Positions 662 through 52,436 of a DNA stretch of 61,032 nt are shown here, piece by piece (the first letter of the stretch is position 1; every line of letters starts with the position of its first letter). A program made the position numbers and the translations under genes. The notes below the pieces were generated by a model, which worked only from the letters and a program-made list of their open reading frames with translations, did no database searches and was not told the origin of the DNA. This DNA is from Ginglymostoma cirratum (taxonomy: Eukaryota): NCBI GenBank assembly GCA_024137785.1, contig JAHRHZ010000085.1:2463456-2524487 (forward strand), read 5' to 3'.

Positions 662-705
662 GTTCAACAGAAAATGTAAGAAATCTCACTCAGCACAAAG
701 ATGAG
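662..705 (+). CDS. Gene A short cytoplasmic exon (xSTENVRNLTQHKDE); upstream V/C1/TM exons lie outside the window
   Basis: Acceptor caccag| at 661 (in-frame alternative aacag| at 670), donor gag|gtaagg at 706; phase 1 to 0 fits the next exon; homologous to 44906-44941 (ctcagcacaaagatgag|gtaagg vs ctcagcgtgaagatgag|gtgagg). Confidence 0.7.
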
Positions 706-818
706 GTAAGGCCTTTTGCCATCGACTTTGCTTTGAATTTCATCTGAATGATTCAGACATTGCAATCAAAATAATAAGCTTTTATCTGTGTGTATGAAGT
801 CAAAAATGTTCCTGTCTT

Positions 819-2870
819 GACCTACCTCAACTCCATTTTCTCCCCTTTGGTCTAGGCACACCCCATCTACATCTGGGACACAAACCATGCTCTTTGGAAA
901 CTTTCAGTTCCCTGGTCCCCAGCGCTTCATCTTCACCATGGATGTGCAATCCCAGTACACATCTATTCCCCAGAAAGACGGCCTAACAGGCCCTCAATCT
1001 TTTCCTCTCCAACAGATCCATTCAGCTTCTCCCCACCAATACACTCCTCCATCTCTCCGAACTAGTCCTCACCCTCAATAACTTTTCCTTCAATTCTTCC
1101 TACTTTCTACAAATCCAGGGGGTTGCCATGGGCACATGCATGGGCCCCAACTATGCCTGCCTGTTTGTCGGTTCTGTCGAATAGAATCCCTACAGTGTGG
1201 AGACAGGCCCTTTGGCCCAACAAATCCACACCAACTCTCAGAGCATACCACTCAGATCCATCCACCTCTCACCCACCTCATCTACACATTCCTCAACACG
1301 ATGGGCTATTTAGCATGGCCAATCCACCTAACCTGCACATCTTTTGACTGTGGGAGGAAACCGGAGCACCCGGATGAAACCCACGCTGACACGGGGAGAA
1401 TGTGCAAACTCCACACAGACAGTCGGGCAAGGGTGGAATCAAACCTGGGTTCCTGGAGCTATGAGGCAATGGTGCTAACCACTGAACCACCATGCTGACC
1501 CTGTTCAGTACGGACACTGGTACTGTTCTCCAATGCTTCCGCAGTTACAGCGATGGCAGCATCGGGTCTGCATTCTGCACCCAGGCTGAACTGGAGTAGT
1601 TCATTGACTTCACTAACAACTTCTACCCTGCCCTCACATTCACTTGGTCTTTCTCAGACACCTCCCTTCCCTTTTGTGAGCTCTCCGATTCCATTTCTGG
1701 CAACAGTTTATGGACAAACATCTACTGTCAAAGCACAGATTCTCATACCTTGCTGGATGACACCTCCTCCCATCCTATATCCTTCAAAACACCATCCCAT
1801 TTTCCAAATTCCTTCATCTTTGTTACATCTGGTCTGGCAAGGTCAACTCCCAAGCATCCCGAATGTCCGCCTTTTTCAAACAACACATTTTTTCCCCCTC
1901 TGTCTTCCAGATACCCCTCCACCACACCTCGTCCATTCTCGCTCAACAGCCCTTAACCACTGCCCCCATGCCCAAACATAATAAAGAGAGGCTCCCCCCT
2001 TGTCCGTATTTTCCACTCCACCAGCCTTTGCATCCAACGTATCATACTCAAACACTTCTGCCAACTGCAAATAGACCCCACCAACCAGAACATCTTCCAC
2101 CCCCAACCTCTCTCTGCCTTCCGCAAGGAACATTTCCTACACCACTCCTTAGTTCGCGCTACACTCCCCACCAACCACTCTAACCTGCCCGTTACCTTGC
2201 CCTGTAACTTTAAATGATGTAACACCTGCCCACACATCACCTCCCTCACCTGTACCCAGGGCTGTAACCAGTCCTTCCAGGTGAGACAGAGCTTTACCTG
2301 CATCTCATCTAACCTAGTCTATTGCATCTGCTGTACCCGTTGTGGTCTTCTCTACATCGATGAGACCCAACATAGACCAGGTGATCATTTTCCCAATCAT
2401 CTTCACCTGGACTGTAACGGCGAGCCTAACCTCCTGGTCACTGTCCATTTCTACTCACAGCCCCTTCCCCTAATCCCCTCAGACATGTCTGTCATTGGCC
2501 TCTCCAGTGTCGCAGTGACTCAGAACAGCAACACCTTATCTTCCACCTGGGCACCCTACAGCCTGGAGGACTCAACATTGACTTCTCCAATTTCAAACTT
2601 CCAGCCCCACCTCCTCCCTTTCATTCCACCCTCTGACCCTCCCTTCCAGCCACCAACCGGATTCATCTCTCCCATCGACCAACCAGGTCACACCTACTAC
2701 CAATGTCCACCTATCACCACCATTCTGCTTCCCTCCTCTCCCCCCTCCATTTTATCTGCAGCTCCCCCTCACCCCACATCCAGTTCTGAAGAAGGGTAAT
2801 ACACAAAATGTTGACTTCTCCTTTCCTCCAGATGCTGCCTGGCTTGCTGTGTTTGTCCAGCCTTCCGTTT
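819..2870 (+). mobile_element. Degenerate Penelope-like retroelement (RT + GIY-YIG endonuclease), interrupted by a SINE
   Basis: RT motifs FIFTMDVQSQYTSIP and GVAMGTCMGPNYACLFVG; GIY-YIG-type FTCISSNLVYCICCTRCGLLYIDET; degenerate hammerhead-type tail at ~2786-2812. Confidence 0.85.
1181..1497 (-). mobile_element. HE1-type tRNA-derived SINE (V-SINE)
   Basis: Minus strand has a tRNA-like head (tggttcagtggttagcacc...), core gactgtctgtgtggagtttgcacattctccccgtgtc and tail gggcctgtctccacactgtagggattcta. Confidence 0.9.
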
Positions 2871-2979
2871 GTTTTCCTTGACAAAACTGCAACTTAGCCT
2901 TTAAGATAAAAAGAACAGAGAGAAAGAAATGATTAAATGTATTACAAATGCAACTCTGATACTTGTCATGAATAATTCC

Positions 2980-3580
2980 ATCATTGTACAGTCACCCACG
3001 TTTCAAGGCTCTCTTTCAACAACATTGTTAATTATCTATTTTTTGTGACATGTTACTAGATGGATACATTTCTCTAGTCTGTTCCTCAACATACTGCTCC
3101 AGAAGACTATCCCTAACACACTTTCAAACTCATCCTTCACAGCTTTAGTGCACATTAGTTTGTTGAGCCTTTGTCTTGATTGATTCCAGCCATGATTGTT
3201 GCAAAAACTATGCACCACACATCACAAATAGGTTTATTTATCTATGCCTCACATTACTAGTAGTGTTTGTGGTTTATAAGCAACGATCAATGTTTCCTGC
3301 TGCTTGCTGTTCCTTAGCTCCACCAGAAAAGATTGCTCATTTTGATATTCCAATCTGAGATCCTTATTCACTGATCCCACCCATTACTACGAGCAAAATA
3401 CTAACATATCTTCTCTTCCTCTGTCCATCCTAAATGACATTGAATATTATTGAAAAATCAGTTGTCCTGATTATCCTGCAGTGATGTGTTTGTCATGTCG
3501 ATTAAATCATAGCCATTCATCTCTATTTAATTGTTTTTAATTTTTTTTCTTGTTGCAAGTAATACATGCATTGAATGGAC
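2980..3580 (-). mobile_element. Very old CR1 ORF2 (endonuclease end) fragment
   Basis: Minus strand reads EMNGYDLIDMTNTSLQDNQD, resembling the CR1 APE start GYDxxAITETWLQ. Confidence 0.5.
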
Positions 3581-4374
3581 TGCCCTTGAATTTGTCATCG
3601 TCAACGTGATTCTAAGCTTTGCTAATGCTTACCTTCATTTCCCCTGGTCTTGCCAGGTTGTGAAATCCTGTGTTTCACTAACTTAGGCGCAGAGGTGCAG
3701 ATCAGAAGAGAACGAAAATTCCTAATAATAAAGCACATTGCACAAAATGTCTGAGAGCACATATGTAAATCAAAATTGATTTCTTGTATTTTGTTCTCTG
3801 AATGAAAGGAATACCATTGTTTATCCATTAAATTGTTTTATTGCTCTGTCTGACCACGTTCCCCATTAATCTGTTGCCCGATGTTTCTATCTTAACAAAA
3901 ATCTTCAGACCGAAATTAACAATTTGCTGGAAAATGTTGGTTCGCATCTTACGTACCTTAAAGATTCTGTGCAATTGAATTGCAAGTTCATCTTCACTAA
4001 AAAAAAACTTCACTGTCCCATTTGTCATTATTCAAATGGTGCTATTAAAATAACTATGGAGATCTAATTATTTTATCATTCTTCAACTCACCAATAAACG
4101 ATTGCTTTTATGAGTCTAATTAGCTCATTAATTTAAGCATTAAGCACAAAATATTAGGGAATGCCAGTTTTAAACTAATTAATGCACCAATCAAAAATCG
4201 CGTAGAAGTTTAGCTATTACACGCAGTTTGAATTTGTACTTTTACTTCCAAATGAGGAAACATGCATTTAATAAAATTTATTTATCTTTGTAAAGGAAAT
4301 TCAGGCCAATTCCGTTTAGAAAGTACAAAACACCTTCAACTTGTTATAGGATGTAATGTTGAATGATTTCCATA

Positions 4375-4722
4375 TGAATATGAATGTGGATAGCAAGAAG
4401 CTTTTTCCCAGATTGGGGGATTCAATTACTAGGGGTCACAATTTCAAGGTGAGAAGGAAAAGTTTTAGGGAGATATGCATGGAAAGTTCTTTACGCAGAA
4501 GGTGGTGGGTGCCTGGAACGCGTTGCCAGTGGAGGTGGTAGAGGTGGGCATGATTGCATCATTTAAGATGTAGCTAGACCGATACATGAATGGGCAGGGG
4601 GCAGAGGGACACAGATTCTTGGAAAATAGGTGACAGGTTTAGAAAGAGGATCTGGATCGGTGCAGGCTTGGAGGGCCGAAGGGCCTGTTCCTGTGCTGTA
4701 ATTTTTCTTTGTTCTTTGTTCT
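4375..4722 (+). mobile_element. CR1 LINE 3' fragment
   Basis: LFPRLGDSITRGHNFKVR...; 3' end gggccgaagggcctgttcctgtgctgta followed by a (ttctttg)n tail. Confidence 0.85.
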
Positions 4723-5049
4723 TTTGAATGTTGAAATTGATAATGTTGAATTAATGCAATCATTTTTTGCTCAGGAAACTGAATTTAGCAGGGTTCCTCT
4801 TCTAAGTTTTAACACACTCAAACATGAAGTTTCATAGTTTATGAGCAGGGTTGCATCAGCAACTGAGGAAGCTTTCATTTATGTCGAGTGGAGAGAAGGG
4901 GACTGGATGAAAAAGCTTTAAGCTATTAAGAATATAACAAAGAGGTAGCAGACTCATGGAGACAAAGTAATTACCATTGATTACTGTGGAAAACTGATTC
5001 CTGGCTCCAGAAAATAGAAATTAATGAATGTTAAACCTTAACTTTCCAG

Positions 5050-5160
5050 AGAAAACAAGAAACAGCTGAAGACAGATTAATTTATGCTCATCTTGAACTG
5101 GTCCATTCAAAGGATGCTAAAATTCCTCAGCCACAGGATGAAAAAACAGTGTATGCAGAG
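5050..5160 (+). CDS. Gene A cytoplasmic exon RKQETAEDRLIYAHLELVHSKDAKIPQPQDEKTVYAE (ITIM LIYAHL plus TVYAE)
   Basis: Acceptor tttccag|, donor gag|gtatct, phase 0-0, 111 nt, open frame; paralogous exon at 47399-47507. Confidence 0.85.
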
Positions 5161-5299
5161 GTATCTCTCTGTTCATATGTCTGAATAAAGTAACCATTTT
5201 CTTAATTACAATCATTTGGTTTTGAGATAACATTGAAGAATTCTAAACTTTTAGTGAAATTTGAAACAATAATGAATTACTTTCACTGTTGTTTTACAG

Positions 5300-5428
5300 A
5301 CCAAACATAGCACGAACAAATGCCAGCTGACTTACGCTGCTCTGAATTTGAATGGTCCCAGGTTAACAATGAAGCCAGAACACACAGCTGCAACTCCATT
5401 GTATGCCGCAGTGAAAGCCAGCAGCTAA
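5300..5428 (+). CDS. Gene A terminal coding exon TKHSTNKCQLTYAALNLNGPRLTMKPEHTAATPLYAAVKASS* (ITIM LTYAAL plus PLYAAV)
   Basis: Acceptor ttttacag|, 129 nt to TAA; same length and aligned motifs as 47650-47778. Confidence 0.85.
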   Translation, partial: TKHSTNKCQLTYAALNLNGPRLTMKPEHTAATPLYAAVKASS

Positions 5429-19413: not shown

Positions 19414-21240
19414 CATAAGACCGTAATACCAAAAGATACAGAGGCAGAATTAGACCATTCGACCCATTGAGTCTGTTCTGCCATTCAATTGTGGCTGATA
19501 CGTTTCTAAATGCCAATGTTCTGCTTTCTCCGCATAGCCTTTGATCACCTTACCAATCAAGAACCTATCTATCTTTTTCTTAAATGCACTCAATGACTTG
19601 GCCTCCACAGCACTCTGCAGCAATAAGTTCCACAGATTAACCACACTCTACTGGAGAAATACTTACTTATCTCAATTCTAAAGAGTCATCCTTCAAACCA
19701 GCTGCACTGTCGGCTCCTACTCTCTCCTATGAGTGGAAACTACTTCTCTACATCCACTCTATCTAGGTATCTCAGTAGTATGTAAAGTTCAAAAAGATCC
19801 CTTCATCTGTATAAATTCGTTTGAATTTAGACCCAGCATCCTCAACCACTCCTCATATGACAAGCCTTTCATTCCCGGGATCATTCTTGTCAACCACCTC
19901 TGGAACCTGCCTGACACTAACATATCCTTCCTTAGATACATGGCCCAAAACTGCTGAGGATATTCCCACTGTGATCTGACCAAGCCTCATACAGTCTCTA
20001 GTTTTGTGTTTTAGCCGTCTTGAAATGAATGCAAACAGTGCAGTTGACTCCCTAACCACTGACTGAACCTGCAATGTTAACCTTAAGAGAATCCTGAGCT
20101 AGGACTCCCACGTCTCTTTGTGTCTCAGATTTCTGAAACATTTCACCATTTAGAAAACAGCCTGTGCCTCTATTCTTCTCATCAAAGTGCATAACCTCCC
20201 ACTTTCACACATTGTATTCCATCTGCCACTTCTTTGCATGCTCGCCTAGCACATTTATGTCCTTCTGCAGCCTTCCCATTTCCTCAACACTGCCTGTCCT
20301 TCTACCTACCTTTTTGTCTTCTGCAAAAGTACCAACAATTCCCCCTGTTATTTTGTCTATATGATTAACATATAACATGAATAGCTGCGGTCAAAAACAC
20401 TGACCACAGCAGAGGTCCACGAGTCAGTAGCTACCATTCTGAAAAAGCCACCTTTATCCCCACTCTCTGCCTTTTGCCAGTCAGCCCATCTGCTGCCCAT
20501 GCTAGTGTCTTTCCCTAACACCATGGTTTCTTACTTAGCAGCCTCCTGTGCAGTATCTTGTCAAAGGCCTTCTGGAAACCCAAATAGATCAGCTCCACTG
20601 ATTCTCCTTTGTCGAACTTGCTTGTTACCTCCATGAAGAATTCTAACAGATCTGTCAGGCATGAACTCCCCTTGATGAAGCCATGCTGACTCAACCATAT
20701 TTTACCATGCACTCCCAAGTACTCCACAATCTCATCCTAAATAACGGTCTGTAAAATCTTACCAAACAACAGAGTTCAGGCTGACTGGCTTATAGTTTCC
20801 AATCTTCTGCCCCCTTCACTTTTTAAACAGGGGTGCTCCATTAGCCATTTTCCAGTCCTCTGGGACCCTTCCTGGCTCCAGTGATACCTGAAAGATCACT
20901 AACAATGCCTCTACGATCTCCTCAGCTATTTCGTTCGGAACCCTGGTTTGTAGTCCATCTAGTCTACATTCTTCGTCCACCTTCACAGCTTTCAGTTTCC
21001 CCAGCACCTTCTCCTTATTGATCTCCATTACACTTATCTCTGCCACTTCAGTCTGTTGAAGTAATGGTATGCTACTGGGGTGTTCCACTGTGAAGACAGA
21101 GGCAAAGTACCTATTCAGTTCCTCCTCCATTTCTTGCTGCCCAATACTGCTTCTCCAGCCTCATTTTCAAGGAGTCCAAAACACTTCCCATTCTCTTACC
21201 TTTTCAATATCTGAAAAAAATCTTGTAATCTTCTTTTCTA
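19414..21240 (-). mobile_element. 5'-truncated CR1 LINE (RT domain and 3' end)
   Basis: SQHGFIKGSSCLTDLLEFF...LIYLGFQKAFDKILH; EELNRYFASVFTVE...RVPEDWKMAN. Confidence 0.92.
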
Positions 21241-21244
21241 AAAT

Positions 21245-22700
21245 TGCGGGGAGACAGCATGTGAGGCTGCGAGAGGGTACACGTATGGGGGGATTGGAGA
21301 ATGGGGAGAGGGAGCGTTCAGGGTGAGCCAGGTAGTGAAGTTGGCAGGGTGAGAGGAATATTTGTGAGGGAGCAAGACAGGTCAAAGCAGATGGATCTAG
21401 AGACGATAGTGAGAGGAGTGGGGTCAGGGAGGAGGTGAGGCTGATGAGGAAAAGAAATATGAAATAAGAGGGACACATGAGGAAATGATAGCGATAGAAA
21501 GGGAGAGGGGGTGAATGAAGTTTCTAAATGGTGGAGAGAGATAGGAATAGGTTTGAGGGGGAAATTTGTGTGAGGGAGAAAGAGTGGACGAATGGTAGGA
21601 AATGTGAGGGAAGGGATAGAAGGAAGAGGAGAGGGAGTCAGAGACGGGGACAGCAGTAAGAGGGGAAGAGAGTGAGAGGAAGAGTGAGGGATGGGTCAAG
21701 GGAGAGGGGAATGTGAGAAAAGGAAGAGGAGAGAGAAGGGAAAACATAGGTAGGGATAGAGATTGGTTGGAAGTGAAGATGAGATAGAGGGATAGAGTGA
21801 GGGAGGAATGAAAAGGGGGGAGAGTGCAGATGAGGAAGTGTGGCTGGGGTGTGATGGGGAGGTTGAGAGAGCAAATCAGATGAATAGGATGAGGGTGATA
21901 GAGGGGACAAGTGAGGATTAAAGGAGAGTGAGAGGGTGTGGTGAAGCAACGGACAGAGAGAATGCGAGAAACAGAAAGAGGGTGTGGGAGTGGACAGGAA
22001 GACAGAGAGGGCAACGGAGAGAGTACAAGGAGGAACGGAGAGACAGAGTGAGGAGCAGAGAATAAGAGGGATGGAGGAGGAGGAAGAAGTGGCTGAGAGA
22101 AGCAGGCGGAGTAGTTGAGCAAGGATGAGGGTGAGAGTGCGCAGGAATTGAGGAAGAGAGGTTGGAGAGGTGTGGAGAGTCGGCTTGAGACACAGGGACG
22201 AGTGTTGGGTAGGATTAGGGGAGAGACAAAGAGTGAGGTGTTGAGAGAAGACGAAAATGGGAAAGACAGAATGAGAGTCAAGTAGAGATAGAGGGCAGAG
22301 GATAAAGGAAGTGGAGGGAGTGCAGGCGGGAGAGAGCTTAGGGGTGTTGGAAGAGTGCAATGGATGGGGAGAGGAATGTTGGTGACAGAATGAGTGCATA
22401 TTCGGTACAGAGGGAAAGAGGGAGATAAGACGGCAGGAGAGAGGTGTGGAGAGAGGAAGAAAGCACACGATAGCTCAGATTGTGGGAGAGGCACTGACTG
22501 GCGGGGGAGAGATGGTAGGATACAGTGAGAGAGAAAGGGCAAGAAATAGGAGTGCAGAACAGAGAATAGCAAGAATTGGATGGACAGAGTGTGGGGTTAG
22601 TGAAGGTGATATAGGAAGGAAAAAGGGCCTGGGAAGGTGAGAGGATAAGGAGTCAAGGAAGGGAGAGAGAGGCAGGTGAGGGATAGGCAGGAGGAGAGAT
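21245..22700 (+). repeat. Polypurine (G/A-rich) low-complexity tract
   Basis: About 1.45 kb dominated by G and A with no clear period; it produces the spurious minus-strand L/S/P-rich ORFs. Confidence 0.9.
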
Positions 22701-23439
22701 TTGACAGTTTGGGATTGTTCTATATGCAGAGAAGTTGACCAAGAGGGGTTCTCAGAATGTTCAACACTATAAAAGGTCTGGATAGAGTAAATGGGGAAAT
22801 TGTTCCCATCATTGACAGTAAATTGGTTAATTGGAAGTAAATTAGTTTCCTTTTAAGTTGCCATGGAGGGAATAGTCAGGCTTTTAATAAAGATAGATAC
22901 ATGTGGGTAGATAAAAGATGTAGACGAAGACATATCTCTTCAGATGCAACATAAAGAGTGAAACTGGGAGTAAGGATTCGATATTTCAAAGTGTGTCTTG
23001 GGCATCAAAACATTAGACTGGAATCCAATATGGACTTTAATGTGGTCCTCTATGTTACTCCCAGCACTGTGGGTAATATATCCATTGTGAGCAGTTAGAT
23101 TGATTCAAAAAGTCAATACTTTCATGTTTGAAATAAAAGCAAAGAGAAGTGTTTATCAAACAATCTGGAGAATCAGACAAAGTGTCAGTGAAGATGAATA
23201 CATTAAACAAACATGATTATGAATTGAATGATTCTTTAAGGTGACTGTACAGTTAGGCTTAGGTCTATTTTGGAGAAACTCAGATGATGCACAGACAGCG
23301 ATGTATTGCAATGTTCCTCTGACATTACAAAGTGAAACTTGCAGCCATCTTTATGATGCTTTTCAAAAACTTGCTGTGAGACACCCCAGAGCCCACCACC
23401 TACATTTCTAACCTATGTAACAATTGGTCTGTGACAGTT

Positions 23440-30981: not shown

Positions 30982-31069
30982 ATGTATGTTCTGCCAGATT
31001 TTCGTTGTCGCTATGTTTGTGAATGGATCACTGTGGAACTTATGTTTTTTTTGTGCATTTCGTATCCAG
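30982..31069 (+). CDS. Candidate leader exon of gene B (MYVLPDFRCRYVCEWITVELMFFLCISYP, or starting at ATG 31042)
   Basis: Open frame ending cca g|gtatat (phase 1) fits the V-exon acceptor ttaacag|tt at 31386. Alternative: in-exon ATG at 31353 (MLNHCTYLLLTVAVCTS). Confidence 0.35.
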
Positions 31070-31386
31070 GTATATGTTTGTTCTTGGAGTGTTTGAAAAG
31101 TTCTTTCTCAAGACGGAAAAATAATTGAACTGATATTTGACAGATAATCGGACACTTTCTTCCGTTATGTTTTTCACGTCAGAGTTCCTCGTCCCAAGAA
31201 TCCTCTGGATAAGTGAAAAAAATATTGGCGCGACTTCAGTTCGGGCAGAAATTCAGATATTGGAGCAGAATTCAAAGAGCAAGACATATTAAATTGTTTC
31301 TATATGAGTGTATTGGATTATTTATGTTATTTCATGTTGCAGTTCATCATCCATGTTGAATCATTGTACGTATCTTTTGTTAACAG

Positions 31387-31698
31387 TTGCTGTCTGCACT
31401 TCGGACAACGTTACTCCGGATATTAGGCAAATAAAGACCCTGATAAATACAACAGTCACCCTGCGATGCCCTTTCTCCTTCGAAGTCAACCATTCAAACA
31501 CAAATGTTTTCTGGTTCAGAGAAGGCAGTGAGACGCTTCTAAAGGAAGGCAGCAGAATACTCTTCAATGTAAAGAGAGGGGGAGCCTACCTTCATCTCTT
31601 TAATGTGACTGTTCTGGATGCTGGAACATATTACTGTATCGTCAAAAATCAGCATCAAACGGTCTCTGGGAAACAAGCAACGCAACTTGTTGTTTACG
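31387..31698 (+). CDS. Gene B V-set Ig exon with germline-joined J-like G strand
   Basis: VTLRC, VFWFR, AYLHL, DAGTYYC, SGKQATQLVVY; donor tac g|gttagt, phase 1; no stops. Confidence 0.93.
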
Positions 31699-32396
31699 GT
31701 TAGTGCCACCACAGTAAACGTTAAGTCTTGGTTCCAATGAACAGTGAATGTGAGTTAGCAGTTGCTTTTTCACAAACATATACAATGAGTATATAATCGT
31801 TCACTTTTTCGAAACGACATGTTCGATAGTGTGTTAAAGAACAGCATTACCTGCGACACGACACACTTCAGCAATTGCGCTTTATCAGCAAATGGTATTG
31901 AAATTTGTGTTGTATAGAAAGCTAATGCAAGACTTCCAAATGAAGCACTTTTCACAATTTAAGCATGGTGTAACAGAGTGAATTATCCAGAGGTTATTGA
32001 CAATATTAAGCATTTTAAATGTCACTTTATTTTCAACTTTGAAAAGCCAAGTTCCTATTCCCCTCGTTTGGACGGCGGCCGTCTCGTTTTCTATGATTCA
32101 GTTCCCAAACCGCTGATTGTGAGGAGCGTACATGATGACAACTCAAATATATTTTTATAAATTAATATGCACACAAAATAGTATCCAATTTTGCTGAACA
32201 TACAGGTGATGTATCAATTGCATTAGGAGGTCGCTACGTGATCAAAGTAATAGCAAGCCCTACCAGTATAAATAATGACGATCAATGCAGCTGCCGTACC
32301 CAGAAGTAACAGTGAGTTAGTTCATGAAATAGTTTACGTTTTTTGAGGACAAGTCCAACGTTCACATTTATTTAAATGTTGTTATTTACAAAGCAG

Positions 32397-32702
32397 CTTC
32401 ACCAGCTCCACTAAAAATTGTATTGATACGTTCCGAAGATCCTTCATCTGCTTCTTTCAAGCTGCAATGCAGGACATCTGGCTTTTCTCCGGAAGACTTT
32501 AACCTTACTTGGCGCAGAAACGGTACACAAATCTTCACTGGATTTAGAAATGTACACCAGGCAAAAGGCGAGGGACTTTATGAAGTGGTCAGCTCCTTGG
32601 ACGTGCCAAATATACCAGAAAGTGACACAGTCTACCTGTGTCAAGTATATCATGTTTCGAGCTCATTTCCAGTAAATGCCAGCTGCACTCTTACGAAAGA
32701 AG
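32397..32702 (+). CDS. Gene B C1-set Ig exon
   Basis: LQCRTSGFSPEDFNLTWRRNG...GLYEVVSSL...YLCQVYH (C1 signatures); acceptor aaagcag|, donor gaa g|gtaaga, phase 1-1. Confidence 0.93.
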
Positions 32703-33037: not shown

Positions 33038-35772
33038 TGCGGATTGGCCATGCTAACATTGCCTGTAGTGTTCAGGGATGTGTAGATTAGATGGATTATG
33101 GGAGTTATGTACGGACCTCCTAACAGTGGTCAGGACCAGGGGTGCAAGATGCACCGGGAAATAGATAGGGCATGTCAGAAAGGCAAGGTCACGGTGATCA
33201 TGGGGGACTTCAATATGCAGGTGGACTGGGTGAATAATATTGCCGGTGGATCCAAAGAAAGGGAATTCATGGAATGCCTCCAGGATGGCTTTTTGGAACA
33301 GCTTGTGATGGAGCCCACAAGGGAGCAGGCTATTCTGGACTTAGTGCTATGTAATGAGCCAGACTTTATAAAAGATCTTAAAGTAAGGGAACACTTAGGA
33401 GGCAGCGATCATAATATGGTAGAGTTCAGTCTGTGGTTTGAAAGAGAGAAGACAAAATTGGATGTAATGGTGGTACAATTAAATAAAGGTAATTACAGGG
33501 GCATGAGAGAGGAACTGACGAAAATCGTCAGTTGGAAGCAGAGCCTAGCAGGGAAGACAGTAGAGCAACAATGGCAGGAGTTTCTGGGTGCAATTGAGGA
33601 CACAATACAGAGATTCATCCCAAAGAAAAGAAAGATTACCCGGGGGAGGATTAGACAGCCATGGCTGACAAAGGAAGTCAAGAAATGTATCAAAGAAAAA
33701 GAGACAGCCTAAATAGTGGCCAAGAGCACTGGAAAATCAGAAGATTGGGAAGGGTACAAGAACAAACAGAGGATAACAAAGAGAGAAATAAGGAAGGAGA
33801 GGACCGAATATGAAGGTAGGCTAGCCAGTAATATTAGAAATGATAGTAAAAGTTTCTTTCAATACATAAGAAACAAACGAGAGGCAAAAGTAAACACTGG
33901 CTGCTCCAAATTGATGCTGGAAAGCTAGTGATGGGAGATAAGGAAATAGCTGAAGACCTTAAGAAGTATTTTGCGTCAGTCTTCACAGTGGAAGACATGA
34001 GTAATATCCCAACAATTAAGGATAGTCAGGGGGCAGAGTTGAGTATGGTAGGCTTTACAAAAGAGAAGGTGCTAGAAAAGCTAAAAGGTCTAAAAATTGA
34101 TAAATCTCCTGGCCCCGATGGGCTACATCCTAGAGTTCTGAGGGAGGTGGCTGAGGAAATAACGGAGGCTATTGTGATCTTTCACAAGTCACTGGAGTCA
34201 GGGGAAGTCCCAGATGATTGGAAAATCGCTGTTGTAACCCTCTTGTTTAAGAAAGGATCAAGACAAAAAATGGAAAATTATAGGCCGATTCGCCTAACCT
34301 CGGTTGTTGGTAAAATTCTAGAATCTATCGTTAAGGATGAGATTTCTAAATTCTTGGAAGTGCAGGGTCAGATTAGAACAAGTCAGCATAGATTTAGTAA
34401 GGGGAAGCCGTGTCTGACAAACCTGTTAGAATTCTTTGAAGAGGTAACAAGTAGGTTAGACCAGGGGAACCCAGTAGATGTTATCTATCTAGACTTCCAA
34501 AAGGCCTTTGATCAGGTGCTTCACGGGAGGCTGCTGAGGAAGGTGAGGGCCCATGGTGTTTGAGGTGAGTTACTGGCATGGATCGAGGATTGGCTATCTG
34601 ACAGAAGGCAGAGAGTTGGGATAAAAGGCTCTTTTTCAGAATGGCAACTGGTGACAAGTGGTGTCCCGCAGGGTTCAGTGTTGGGGCTGCAGCTGTTCAC
34701 TTTATACATTAATGATCTGGATGAAGGGACTGGGGGCATTCTGGCAAAGTTTGCCGATGATACGAAGTTGGGTGGACAGGCAGGTAGTACGGAGGAGGTG
34801 GGGAGGCTGCAGAACGATTTAGACAGTTTAGGAGAGTGGTCCAGGAAATGGCTGATGAAATTCAAAGTGAGCAAATGTGAGGTCTTGCACTTTGGAAAAA
34901 AGAATACAGGAATGGGCTATTTTCTGAACGGTGAGAAAATTCATAAAGCCGAAGTACAAAGGGATCTGGGAGTGCTAGTACAGGATTCTCTAAAGGTTAA
35001 CTTGCAGGTTGAGTCCGTGATTAAGAAAGCAAATGGAATGTTGTCATTTATCTCAAGAGGGTTGGAATATAAAAGCAGCAATGTGCTTCTGAGACTTTAT
35101 AAAGCTCTCGTTAGGCCCCATTTAGAATACTGTGTCCAATTTTGGGGCCCACACCTTAGGAAGGACATACTGGCACTGGAGCATGTCCAGCGGAGATTCA
35201 CACGGATGATCCCTGGAATAGTAGGCCTAACATAGGATGAACGGCTGAGGATCCTGGGATTGTATTCATTCGAGTTTAGAAGGTTGAGGGGAGATCTAAT
35301 AGAAACTTACAAGATAATGCATGGCTTAGAAAGGGTGGACGCTGGGAAGTTGTTTCCGTTAGGTGGGGATACTGGGACCCGTGGGCACAGCCTTAGAATT
35401 CGAGGGGGTCAATTTAGAACGGAAATGAGGAGACATTTCTTCAGCCAGAGAGTGGTGGGCCTGTGGACTTCATTGCCACGGAGCGCAATGGAGGCCAGGA
35501 CGTTGAATGTCTTCAAGGCAGAGATTGATAAATTCTTGATCTCGCAAGGAATCAAGGGCTCCAGGGAGAGTGCAGGTAAGTGGAGTTGAAATGCCCATCA
35601 GCCATGATTAAATGGCGGAGTGGACTCGATGGGCCGAATGGTCTTACGTCCACTCCTATGTCTTATGGTCTTCTGGTCTTATTATAGGGGGATGGGTCTG
35701 GATGGGATGCTGTAAGGTTGGTGTGGACTTGTTGGGCCGAAGGGCCTGTTTCCACACTGTAGGGATTCTATG
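33038..35772 (+). mobile_element. HE1 SINE 3' part split by a CR1 insertion (33038-33097 and ~35681-35772)
   Basis: attggccatgctaacattgcc...gattagatggattat resumes as attataggggg...ccacactgtagggattcta after the LINE. Confidence 0.75.
33098..35680 (+). mobile_element. 5'-truncated CR1 LINE ORF2 (end of APE, full RT) with few disablements
   Basis: MGDFN, ILDLVL, SDHN (APE); YLDFQKAFD, GVPQGSVLG, KFADDTKL (RT); a few stops and frameshifts; (tcttatgg)n-like tail. Confidence 0.97.
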
Positions 35773-44364: not shown

Positions 44365-44478
44365 ATTTTGCCTTTGAAATCAGTGTTCCTATGGCTGCCG
44401 GTTGCGCGGCTCGTGCACTTGCAATTCTGATATTGACCTTGATGATTGCCAAGGGTTTTCTGTTCTTTATCTCCAAAG
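44365..44478 (+). CDS. Gene B transmembrane exon DFAFEISVPMAAGCAARALAILILTLMIAKGFLFFISK
   Basis: Acceptor attacag|, donor aaa g|gtatga, 114 nt, phase 1-1, compatible with the C1 exon; hydrophobic stretch containing Arg and Lys. Confidence 0.82.
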
Positions 44479-44905
44479 GTATGAACAGGATAGAAATGTC
44501 TATCTGAAATTAACTTAATTGCGAGCTGAATTTCTGAACTGGACAATTTAAATAAATATTTTATGTGAAACCTCTTTCAAATCTTGACATTGCTTCTCAT
44601 CAAATATAAAACAAAAAGATTTGAAGTTTCGCTTTGTGAACTATATCAGTGTAGGTCAAAATTGTATTGCTGAAATTCATTGGTGTCAGAAGTTTCTGTA
44701 GCTTCAATCATGAAAACATAAATTCAAAGCATCTGCGTGTAACATGTAGAGCTGTATTGCAAAACTGTGTTTCCTATTGTACCCTGTTTACAAATATTGA
44801 ATAGCAGTCAAATTGCTTTTGGTTTCTTTGGTTTGCCGATGAGTGCAAATATCAGCCTTTTTTGTTGCTGACTAATAACATTTTTATTTCTCTAATGGGG
44901 GAAAG

Positions 44906-44941
44906 AAAACATCAATAAATTGAACTCAGCGTGAAGATGAG
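44906..44941 (+). pseudogene. Gene B short cytoplasmic exon, damaged (+1 nt, weak acceptor); reads ENINKLNSA*
   Basis: Homologous to 671-705 but 36 vs 35 nt; stops in all three frames; donor gag|gtgagg retained. Confidence 0.7.
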
Positions 44942-47398: not shown

Positions 47399-47507
47399 AG
47401 AAAAGGTCAGTTGCCTGACGATAAGCTGCAATATGCTGCTCTTGATCAAGTTGGTTCTGAGCCTGGCATAATGTCAAAACAACAGAAAGAAATCACAATC
47501 TATAGAG
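47399..47507 (+). pseudogene. Gene B ITIM exon, damaged: RKGQLPDDKLQYAALDQVGSEPGIMSKQQKEITIY then frameshift
   Basis: Aligns to 5050-5160; acceptor tttcgag instead of tttccag; 109 vs 111 nt (tat-a-gag vs tat-gca-gag). Confidence 0.8.
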
Positions 47508-47649: not shown

Positions 47650-47778
47650 ACAAAAAACTGCATGACAGACACCAGGCCGACTTCCCTTGCTCTGAAATTC
47701 AATGATTCTAGGACATCATCAAAACCCAAATGCCAAGAAAATAGTCCAGTTTATGCAGCGGTAAAAAGCAGCCACTGA
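47650..47778 (+). pseudogene. Gene B terminal exon TKNCMTDTRPTSLALKFNDSRTSSKPKCQENSPVYAAVKSSH* (ITIM Tyr lost; now out of frame)
   Basis: Acceptor ttttcag|; same length as 5300-5428; LTYAAL corresponds to PTSLAL, PLYAAV to PVYAAV. Confidence 0.8.
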
Positions 47779-51081: not shown

Positions 51082-51478
51082 CTTCTTTCGCAATAGTGTA
51101 ACTGACATTTGCTGGAAATGAGCTTGAAATGTGATGCACTAGACAAGTGTAAACTGTGTCACATTCGACTGCCTCTGACACCTCTAAGGTGCTGACAACC
51201 TCGAAGTCTGTTGGTGTTTCCTTGTTTTTCATTTCTAACTGCAGTCAAGACTTTTCTGAAGAAAGGTCTCGGCCCAAAACATCAGCTTTCCTGCTCCTCT
51301 GATGCTGCTTGGCCTGCTGTGTTCATCCAGCTCCACACCTTGTTATCCAAGGATTTTGTATTCTTTTTGTGTGAAGTAAAATAAATGTCTTTTGGGTAAA
51401 ATGCAGAAGTCCTGCGCTGCAGAATGAAAGAAATGTCTTCTCAATGTACTGGCACAATTTTCAGGGCAGTTGGTGAAT
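51082..51478 (-). pseudogene. Locus C C1 exon (paralog of 32397-32702), disrupted
   Basis: DSPTALKIVPVH*EDISFILQRRTSAFYPKDIYFT...[insert]...FEVVSTLEVSEAVECDTVYTCLVHHISSSFPANVSYTIAKE; stop, first Cys to Arg, frameshift, repeat insertion. Confidence 0.9.
51251..51347 (+). mobile_element. Penelope-derived short repeat inserted in the locus C C1 exon
   Basis: ctgaagaaaggtctcggcccaaaacatcagctttcctgctcc...; flanked by caaga / caagga. Confidence 0.85.
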
Positions 51479-52122
51479 CTGCATTGTCAATAACACAATT
51501 GTTTGAAATCTAAAGATCAGAATCCTACTCCAAAGCTTCAACGATTTCATGAAGAAACTATCTGTAAATTTGTGGCATGGTTCCTACATTAGAATTCATT
51601 ACATGCTTGGAGAAAATATTACACTTAACATATTGCGAGCCCCTGCACCCCCAAAGCAATTGATGCACCATTTCCAAATTCATAAAAAATTGGTTTCCAA
51701 CAATTTACATAATAATTAATACAAAAAAAAGGGATCTCGTTCTGCATCCTTCTCATAACAATCGGTTTGGTACTAGATTCCAGATCATAGAAACTGCAAC
51801 AGCCACAGTCCAAATGATCGGGACAGGAATTTCATTTTCAACTAGATACCGGATATTCAAAATGTACAATTCTGCAGGTAATATCTGTATCTTTTCAACT
51901 GTTTCCTGATGCTTAAATGAGGAAAGAAAAATGGGTGGCTTCACAGTTTAACTTATTCTGCAATAGATGCATTTCAGCACAATTTTCTAATGAAGTGCAG
52001 ATGGTAATCTTTATACTGTGGCGTTTTCTACGAGTTTCTCACACTGTTGATAATTTCATTTGAAAGAATTTGAATGTTTATATCAAATGTAGCTAAGACA
52101 CCATGTCTGTCTGTGGTCACAC

Positions 52123-52436
52123 CATCTCCAGTAAATTGCACAGCAGTTTCTTTCCCAACCGTTTGATGCTAATACTTGACGACACGGTAATATGTTCCAG
52201 CATCTCGGACAGCCACATTCAGAAGTTTAAGGTAGGGCTGCTCCTCTAACTACAGTGAATAACTTTCTGCTATCCTCCCTGCTGAAAGTTATTATTACCT
52301 TCTTTCCACCAGTCAGCTGCAACATTCGAATGGTCAATTTCAAAGGAGAAAGGACATAGCATGAGAATTGTTGAACATCTCTGCGCGGCTATACGTCGAA
52401 GATCCGGTTTCACTTCGGCTGAAATGCCCACAGCAG
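52123..52436 (-). pseudogene. Locus C V exon (paralog of 31387-31698), disrupted
   Basis: AVGISAEVKPDLRRI...CPFSFEIDHSNVAADWWKEG..(+1)EDSRKLFTVVRGAA(+1)YLKLLNVAVRDAGTYYRVVKY*HQTVGKETAVQF; expected acceptor AG reads CG. Confidence 0.92.

Follow-up and report, generated by a model that had tools for sequence, protein, structure and literature searches.

A nurse shark V-C1 gene as a candidate activating-type member of a chondrichthyan germline-joined paired-receptor family

Of the living animals that have antibodies and T cells, the oldest are the sharks, rays, and chimaeras. NKp30 is built on a single-exon VJ, and the arginine in its transmembrane (TM) segment pairs with zeta/gamma adaptors. 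The second domain of the NITRs belongs to the I-set, not to C1, and human SIRP adjoins NSFL1C at 20p13. SIRP has been argued to be a V-C1 link to the antigen receptors (PMC2785349), and the same has been argued for the NITRs (PMC7916673). According to the available part of a further source, UrIg has three or more C1 domains, forms disulfide-linked homodimers, and is linked to MHC or to Ig/TCR genes, and UrIg2 is proposed as the RAG target; SIRP and ITIM go unmentioned in that part of the text (PMC12227049). NKp30, PRARP, UrIg, and tetrapod VJ-C1 genes are listed in another paper (PMC10751288).

Here we describe a gene from the nurse shark Ginglymostoma cirratum that lies in a stretch of 61,032 nucleotides (the window hereafter; GCA_024137785.1, contig JAHRHZ010000085.1, positions 2,463,456 to 2,524,487 of the forward strand), which is shark-like DNA with many LINE repeats. 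With a probability of roughly 0.6, we consider this gene to be an activating-type member of a chondrichthyan family of germline-joined V-C1 paired receptors. Its product is probably a paired receptor of the innate system, and not a light chain, a TCR, or their ancestor; the family is predicted to work like SIRP and NITR, and it falls outside SIRP by domain number and synteny. The window copy is a recent, derived member of this large birth-and-death family of single-pass receptors.

The ectodomain is encoded by two plus-strand exons. The V exon (31387-31698; 312 nt, flanked by AG/GT) encodes the end of the signal peptide and a short V domain with a degenerate J-like G strand and four sequons, and the C1-set exon (32397-32702; 306 nt, AG/GT) carries three sequons and an extra Cys codon, TGC, at 32684. 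Neither contains a stop codon, and their phase-1 joint yields a V-C1 of 205 residues. The C1 acceptor is fixed by a spliced contig of run X2 with the GT..AG joint 31698|32397, and an X2 contig covers the V exon exactly from end to end, with 3 differences; we take runs X1 and X2, each a coded set of contigs, to be RNA because of their exon-exact ends and not from any record of them as RNA. At 31541-31560 of the V exon, three differences are common to X1 and X2 and bring two residue changes (G54D, L58F), possibly an allele. The second exon scored 39.5 bits as C1-set in Pfam (cut-off 21), and V-set, I-set, and generic Ig models scored alike on the first. The C1 sequence hallmarks given in PMC2785349, namely FSP, a Cys-to-Trp spacing of 13 residues, and CxVxH, are all present in the window C1. 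YYC followed by IVKNQHQTVSGKQATQLVVY is found in the V exon.

The exon borders, the X2 joint, and the Pfam match bear out the first-pass annotation in its description of a germline-joined V spliced in phase 1 to a second domain that is a true C1-set, and all seven sequons that it had named (NVT, NTT, NHS, NVT, NLT, NGT, and NAS) were found; its start of the gene, 31353, falls in an intron. RSS had been said to be absent, and our scan of 2 kb likewise found no good one: it returned 2 weak sites (0.95 in shuffled sequence), neither at V/J and none inside V. The J-like strand survives in part: the J-like end is weak and reads SGKQAT, without GxG, in the window copy, while most family members have NG[TS]G[ST]. 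The G-strand GxG, present in most of the family, is lost in the subfamily of the window gene.

Three database homologs, 62-72% identical over V, are V-C1-TM proteins, two of them with tyrosine tails, and the leader, TM, and tail exons were located by searching the window with these three. The splice of the leader exon (30982..31069, plus strand) into the V exon is visible in X2. An alternative leader acceptor in intron 1 at 31183 is also seen in X2. Within the leader, a run of eight T residues (31045-31052, plus strand) is 2 bases longer than in 12/12 aligned paralogs, and the leader measures 57 nt instead of the 55 nt found in 13 of the 14 mapped paralogs. Because of this insertion the family ATG at 31013 no longer reads into V and gives a 34-residue peptide; two other ATGs, at 30982 and 31042, match the frame of V and retain FLCISYPVAVCTS, the hydrophobic signal core. 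An assembly error in the T run is unlikely, as a 149-nt X2 contig is identical to the 8-T form (0 differences). Two other X2 contigs lack the extra bases, and these may represent an allele or paralogs.

An intact TM exon with an arginine in its outer part (AAGCAARALAILILTLMIA) lies at 44365-44478 on the plus strand. We infer from order and spacing that it belongs to the window gene, because no contig was found that joins the window C1 to it (the loose C1-TM ends proved to be paralogs, and a 19.5-kb comparison with the sequencing runs, swamped by repeats, showed no such joint, a gap in cover that carries no weight as evidence). The resulting C1-TM intron of 11.7 kb compares with about 7-12 kb in the closest paralogs; no further V exon was found between the window C1 and this TM exon, and the gene has one C1 exon only. 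Among several repeats in the intron is a LINE with reverse transcriptase frames (33086-35586, plus strand), which we take to be of the CR1-like class. A long purine-rich stretch of low complexity occupies 21000-22850 of the window.

What follows the TM exon on the plus strand is a series of relics. Tail exon 1 (44895-44941) has lost its AG acceptor and contains an in-frame TGA; tail exon 2 (47399-47507) keeps LQYAAL, is 2 bases short, and had no in-frame access by the routes tested; the last tail exon (47650-47778) has lost its first Tyr and keeps PVYAAV out of frame. Each of the four splice routes tested gave a tail of about 6-18 residues with no tyrosine. The window also holds parts of two paralogs. 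The last three exons of an upstream one (662-5428, plus strand; exons 662-705, 5050-5160, and 5300-5428) encode an intact, inhibitory-type tail with four Tyr. The other, a broken V-C1 paralog of another subfamily on the minus strand (51083-52434), contains stops, frameshifts, and a short repeat inside C1, and no TM exon was found downstream of it in the window; we identify it with what the first-pass annotation called locus C.

These lesions bring up the alternative that fares best after the paired-receptor reading, namely that the window copy belongs to this family but has recently become a pseudogene that continues to be transcribed, or is a null allele, which we consider unlikely but take seriously. 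The leader frameshift, the lost acceptor, the TGA, and the 2-base loss in the tail all speak for it, as do a closest V paralog that is itself broken, many broken neighbours, and the exact presence of the 8-T form in an X2 contig. On the other side, open frames and good splice sites are found in each of the V, C1, and TM exons (732 nt), the two in-frame ATGs keep the signal core, loss of the tail is what would be expected of an activating receptor, and the two X2 contigs without the extra bases come perhaps from an intact allele. The word "intact" used in the first reading of this locus therefore applies to V, C1, and TM and not to the whole gene, whose leader has a 2-base insertion and whose first tail exon has neither an acceptor nor freedom from TGA.

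The membrane ends of the paralogs argue for an activating-type member of a paired-receptor family. Our census of TM exons and tails covered 22 TM exons (21 of the 24 found by search plus one extra), which are not independent copies. In none of the 10 copies with Arg does the reading frame continue into the last exon; eight have no ITIM-like motif and two keep one. Of the 12 without Arg, five keep 3-4 Tyr motifs and the other seven have cut or broken tails, which shows that loss of the tail is not confined to the Arg copies. A further neutral TM copy beyond the 22 has four Tyr motifs. Opposite membrane ends occur between close relatives, in L005/L007 (92% identical in V) and L006/L009 (93%), and the genes are clustered; alike ectodomains with opposite signalling ends in one cluster are what defines paired receptors. 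The TM region of the window gene is 73-90% identical to type B loci over 1-2 kb, but its match to type A loci, at 69-76%, is confined to the exon, over about 160-250 bases; in ectodomain, by contrast, the nearest relatives of the window gene have type A ends. A type A-like ectodomain on a type B-like TM region suggests exchange of the TM/tail block. The tyrosines are spaced 23/14/23 in the shark and chimaera tails and 24/17/26 in bat SIRP-alpha, with TYAxL and TEYAxI motifs common to both.

Genome-wide, we obtained 69 matches to V and 84 to C1, of which 69/69 and 81/84, respectively, fall on contigs C84 and C85, the latter being the contig that holds the window. Two queries together mark at least 77 distinct V sites, which form five blocks; the 2-Mb block around the window accounts for 48. 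These counts are lower bounds and include fragments. Decay is common in the family, as only five of 19 nearby paralogs are open in leader, V, and C1 (three could not be judged, and the others are broken). The closest V paralog, L002 (G000:C85:2849223-2852513; 86%), combines a GC leader donor and a broken V with a neutral TM exon and a three-Tyr tail, and it may be the defunct inhibitory counterpart of the window gene. Among 1.84 billion representative proteins, 48 matched at E<=1e-30, and all 19 family proteins checked by name come from sharks, rays, or Callorhinchus. Homologs of the window gene are mostly V-C1. Four family members or isoforms (P0005, P0083, P0092, and P0123) run from V straight to TM without C1. 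Automatic names given to family proteins include SHPS-1-like, tapasin-related, NCR3LG1-like, Ig lambda-like, and MHC II beta-like, and such wrong-looking names, at least five with light chain, MHC II, and tapasin among them, can distort counts of those families. We found no description of this family in the literature accessible to us; provisionally, the family thus appears to be unnamed to date.

The dN/dS ratio was 0.58 for V (7 intact exons) and 0.49 for C1 (9 exons). By region, the BC (CDR1) and FG/G loops are near 1 and the E-F core is at 0.32, which fits relaxed or diversifying tips; with overall values below 1, positive selection on the V loops is not proven.

The family forms one clade in the V (97/97), C1 (100/97), and V+C1 (100/100) trees, which were built from alignments of about 100-200 columns with thinned family rows and partly author-assigned reference labels, and without TCR V, NITR, or named PRARP sequences. 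The C1 tree excludes it from the Ig/TCR/UrIg clade (98/95) and places it, with weak support, next to SIRP (92/75). The V+C1 tree resolves four lineages, with the best split placing the family and B7-H6/tapasin-like rows against SIRP and Ig/UrIg (96/85); in AU tests on V+C1, neither family+SIRP nor family+Ig/UrIg is rejected (p 0.23 each), and family+SIRP gave p 0.10 in the other test. Grouping with light chains is rejected for V (p 0.046) and for V+C1 (p 0.041) but not for C1 alone (p 0.24), so the family does not join an Ig light-chain isotype firmly, one of the outcomes that the first-pass annotation had named as refuting it. Judged by sequence, then, the family appears to be a lineage of its own outside the Ig/TCR/UrIg, SIRP, and B7-H6/tapasin-like groups, with a sister group that is ambiguous among SIRP, B7-H6/tapasin-like, and Ig/UrIg rows.

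That the family is the true shark SIRP, an ortholog of SIRP-alpha/beta relocated to another chromosome, seems to us doubtful, and this reading is compatible with the paired-receptor explanation as far as function is concerned. A chimaera member has SIRP-alpha as its best PDB sequence match, narrowly over UrIg2 in second place and light chains, and SIRP-alpha clusters as its top Atlas matches; together with the four-Tyr tail, the position in the C1 tree, the AU results, and the failure of our searches to surface any other SIRP candidate in the nurse shark genome, this favours orthology. Absence of SIRP from the 50 structural matches listed does not exclude it. Several features speak against it: the family has one C1, its V is 6-12 residues shorter between the cysteines than that of bat SIRP-alpha, its TM charge is an Arg and not a central Lys, and the V+C1 tree joins it to the B7-H6/tapasin-like rows.

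Genomic position also speaks against SIRP orthology. The C84 block of the family lies about 210 kb from an NDRG gene, NDRG4, and not beside an NSFL1C-like gene. Family members and NDRG4 were found on contigs of equal size in Chiloscyllium punctatum (85,023,262) and in Hemitrygon akajei (91,705,794), so that in both species they probably share one chromosome, and we infer that C84 and C85 do likewise. Around a SEP-domain gene on C87, which we presume to be NSFL1C, there was no Ig match within 200 kb, and no C1-set was found on C87/C88 among the 150 scored of 248 candidates; a genome query with bat SIRP-alpha under a stricter filter gave 15 weak matches, none on C87, and absence is not established thereby. 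MHC, NKp30-like, Ig, and B7-H6-like exons lie on contigs other than those of the family. On C2, which also has MHC-like C1 exons, three single-exon VJ with intact GxG (L093, L101, and L106) are NKp30-like by our own reading, and the NKp30-like exons there form their own clade. At L152 and L170 (G000:C61:1.85-2.03 Mb) and L166 (C46), C1 exons and a VJ exon group with no labelled family and might be related to PRARP or to TCR.

In humans, NDRG4 maps to 16q, chromosome 20 carries both NDRG3 and SIRP, and NDRG2 is a neighbour of TCR-alpha/delta at 14q11. Because the family lies beside NDRG4, SIRP goes with NDRG3, and TCR-alpha/delta is by NDRG2 (human positions), a far-reaching reading can be drawn, which we regard as quite improbable: the family would be a fourth germline VJ-C1 lineage, so far undescribed, that arose by whole-genome duplication as a sister to both SIRP and the rearranging receptors in an NDRG paralogon, the gene hit by RAG would have come from a paired innate receptor and not only from the proto-MHC, and the cluster would be the main shark set for innate self/non-self recognition. 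The linkage to NDRG4 offers a way to ask if a single ancestral V-C1 gene was duplicated to give SIRP, this family, and the antigen receptors.

The shape of the ectodomain bears on a reading that we hold to be very improbable, in which the family is a B7-H6-like ligand for NKp30-like receptors and not a receptor for outside ligands. The Cys-Cys distance in V is 56 residues in the window copy and 54-60 in the family, against 65-74 in Ig, UrIg, NKp30-like, and bat SIRP rows. A model of the window V (pLDDT 84) has strands A', B, C, D, E, F, and G and no C''; its top fold matches (NCAM2, titin, Dscam, BTLA, NKp44, and B7 domains) are tied near Z 11-12, and by both PDB sequence and fold its matches are domains of the I-set and B7 type rather than the V of antibodies or TCRs. 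The fold of the whole ectodomain was predicted for the homolog P0001 (72% identical in V, 86% in C1), not for the window product. This model has rmsd 2.3-3.2 A to B7-H6, its top match at 29-30% identity, and 9-10 A to light chains, with Z tied near 14, a pattern that predicts a straight B7-like rod without an elbow. To the structural match may be added that the family adjoins the B7-H6/tapasin-like rows in the V and V+C1 trees and that some members are annotated as NCR3LG1-like. The family is not nested in these rows, however; in the V+C1 tree it stands outside their clade (100/98), possibly as its sister, on a long stem, so that the firm grouping with a known B7 or tapasin ortholog, also named in the first-pass annotation as refuting it, did not appear. 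Family+all B7-H6-like C1 rows was rejected by AU (p 0.028), which we discount since the label spans two groups. Moreover, most members have the J-type GxG that B7-H6-like rows do not, and the paired ITIM/Arg ends fit a signalling receptor. Separate B7-H6-like multi-domain V-C1 genes exist at C62:25.55-25.83 Mb (L158-L163) and C222:31.1 Mb (L164), and these fall together with rows from amphibians and fishes.

NASC does contain the additional Cys, with Tyr at that site in the minus-strand paralog, as had been described. The proposal that it allows disulfide-linked dimers is unsupported by sequence comparison: 45 of 48 family rows have Tyr, His, or Phe in this column, so the Cys replaces a conserved aromatic, and in an alignment by eye it falls five residues before the interchain Cys of the shark light chain L103. 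A secreted light chain is rejected, as the C1 exon ends in a splice donor and the homologs carry TM and tail. The idea of a TCR- or light-chain-like VJ-C1 with the layout of the pre-RAG antigen-receptor ancestor, with which this locus was first put forward, draws on the single-exon V with a J-like end, the true C1, the phase-1 joins, the missing RSS, the AU value for family+Ig/UrIg, and the rank of UrIg2 in PDB, and is hardly tenable in view of a C1 outside the Ig/TCR/UrIg clade, a window copy without GxG or C'', the misplaced Cys, the absence of an elbow in the homolog model, and no contig linkage to MHC or Ig/TCR. Functional resemblance to a TCR or light chain is likewise unsupported in single-pass receptors with ITIM-type or arginine-type ends. 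The V-C1 layout is common to SIRP, UrIg, B7-H6, and tapasin and so by itself singles out nothing; since, moreover, the relatives of the window copy lie closer to Ig/TCR than it does, no special link to the ancestor is supported, and the best V+C1 split, whose alternatives are not rejected, puts SIRP, not this family, next to Ig/UrIg.

If the window gene is an activating-type paired receptor, an alternative ATG would rescue the frame of its leader, and the TM arginine would, by analogy with NKp30, NKp46, and LILRA, recruit an ITAM adaptor, FcR-gamma or CD3-zeta. Carried as a monomer by myeloid or NK-like cells, the receptor would bind a ligand of host or microbial origin with its V tip, and the activating copy would counter inhibitory sisters with alike ectodomains. 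Activating copies may arise when the ectodomain of one subfamily is joined to the TM/tail block of another, the tail being lost later. The single window copy is not special, being derived and perhaps dying; the large and conserved family offers candidates for self/non-self sensing by chondrichthyan myeloid or NK-like cells.

The nearest described relatives of the window gene are RefSeq V-C1-TM genes such as XP_048402855.2, XP_007902825.2, and XP_032892405.1, which belong to the same family; the zebra shark model is 72% identical to the window gene in V and 86% in C1, and the window copy differs from these relatives in being of the Arg, tail-less type and in its leader frameshift. Of the features of light chains and TCR, the C1-set is shared, and the RSS split, F/W-G-x-G, C'', and interchain Cys are absent. 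UrIg and UrIg2 are also non-rearranging shark genes with a single VJ exon followed by C1; they differ in grouping with Ig in trees and in having no paired ITIM/Arg family, and the family described here does not qualify as UrIg. NKp30 differs in having no C1. B7-H6 (NCR3LG1) and tapasin-like genes share the V-C1-TM rod, with the best structural overlay in the homolog model and neighbouring positions in two trees, but nearly all B7-H6-like rows are without the J GxG, and they form a separate clade with loci of their own in this genome. The teleost NITRs resemble the family in their diversified germline V-J, in having both activating and inhibitory forms, and in birth-and-death evolution (PMC7916673). 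SIRP, with its inhibitory SIRP-alpha and activating SIRP-beta1, shares the germline V with a J-like end followed by a true C1, the tandem cluster, the four-Tyr ITIM/ITSM-type tail with near spacing, and the coexistence of inhibitory and short-tailed forms. The family departs from it in lacking the V(J)-C1-C1 ectodomain (one C1 instead of two), in its short V, in an outer TM Arg instead of a central Lys, in being linked to NDRG4 and not to NSFL1C, and in forming a clade of its own, while a four-Tyr tail or a short tail with a charged TM is found in both.
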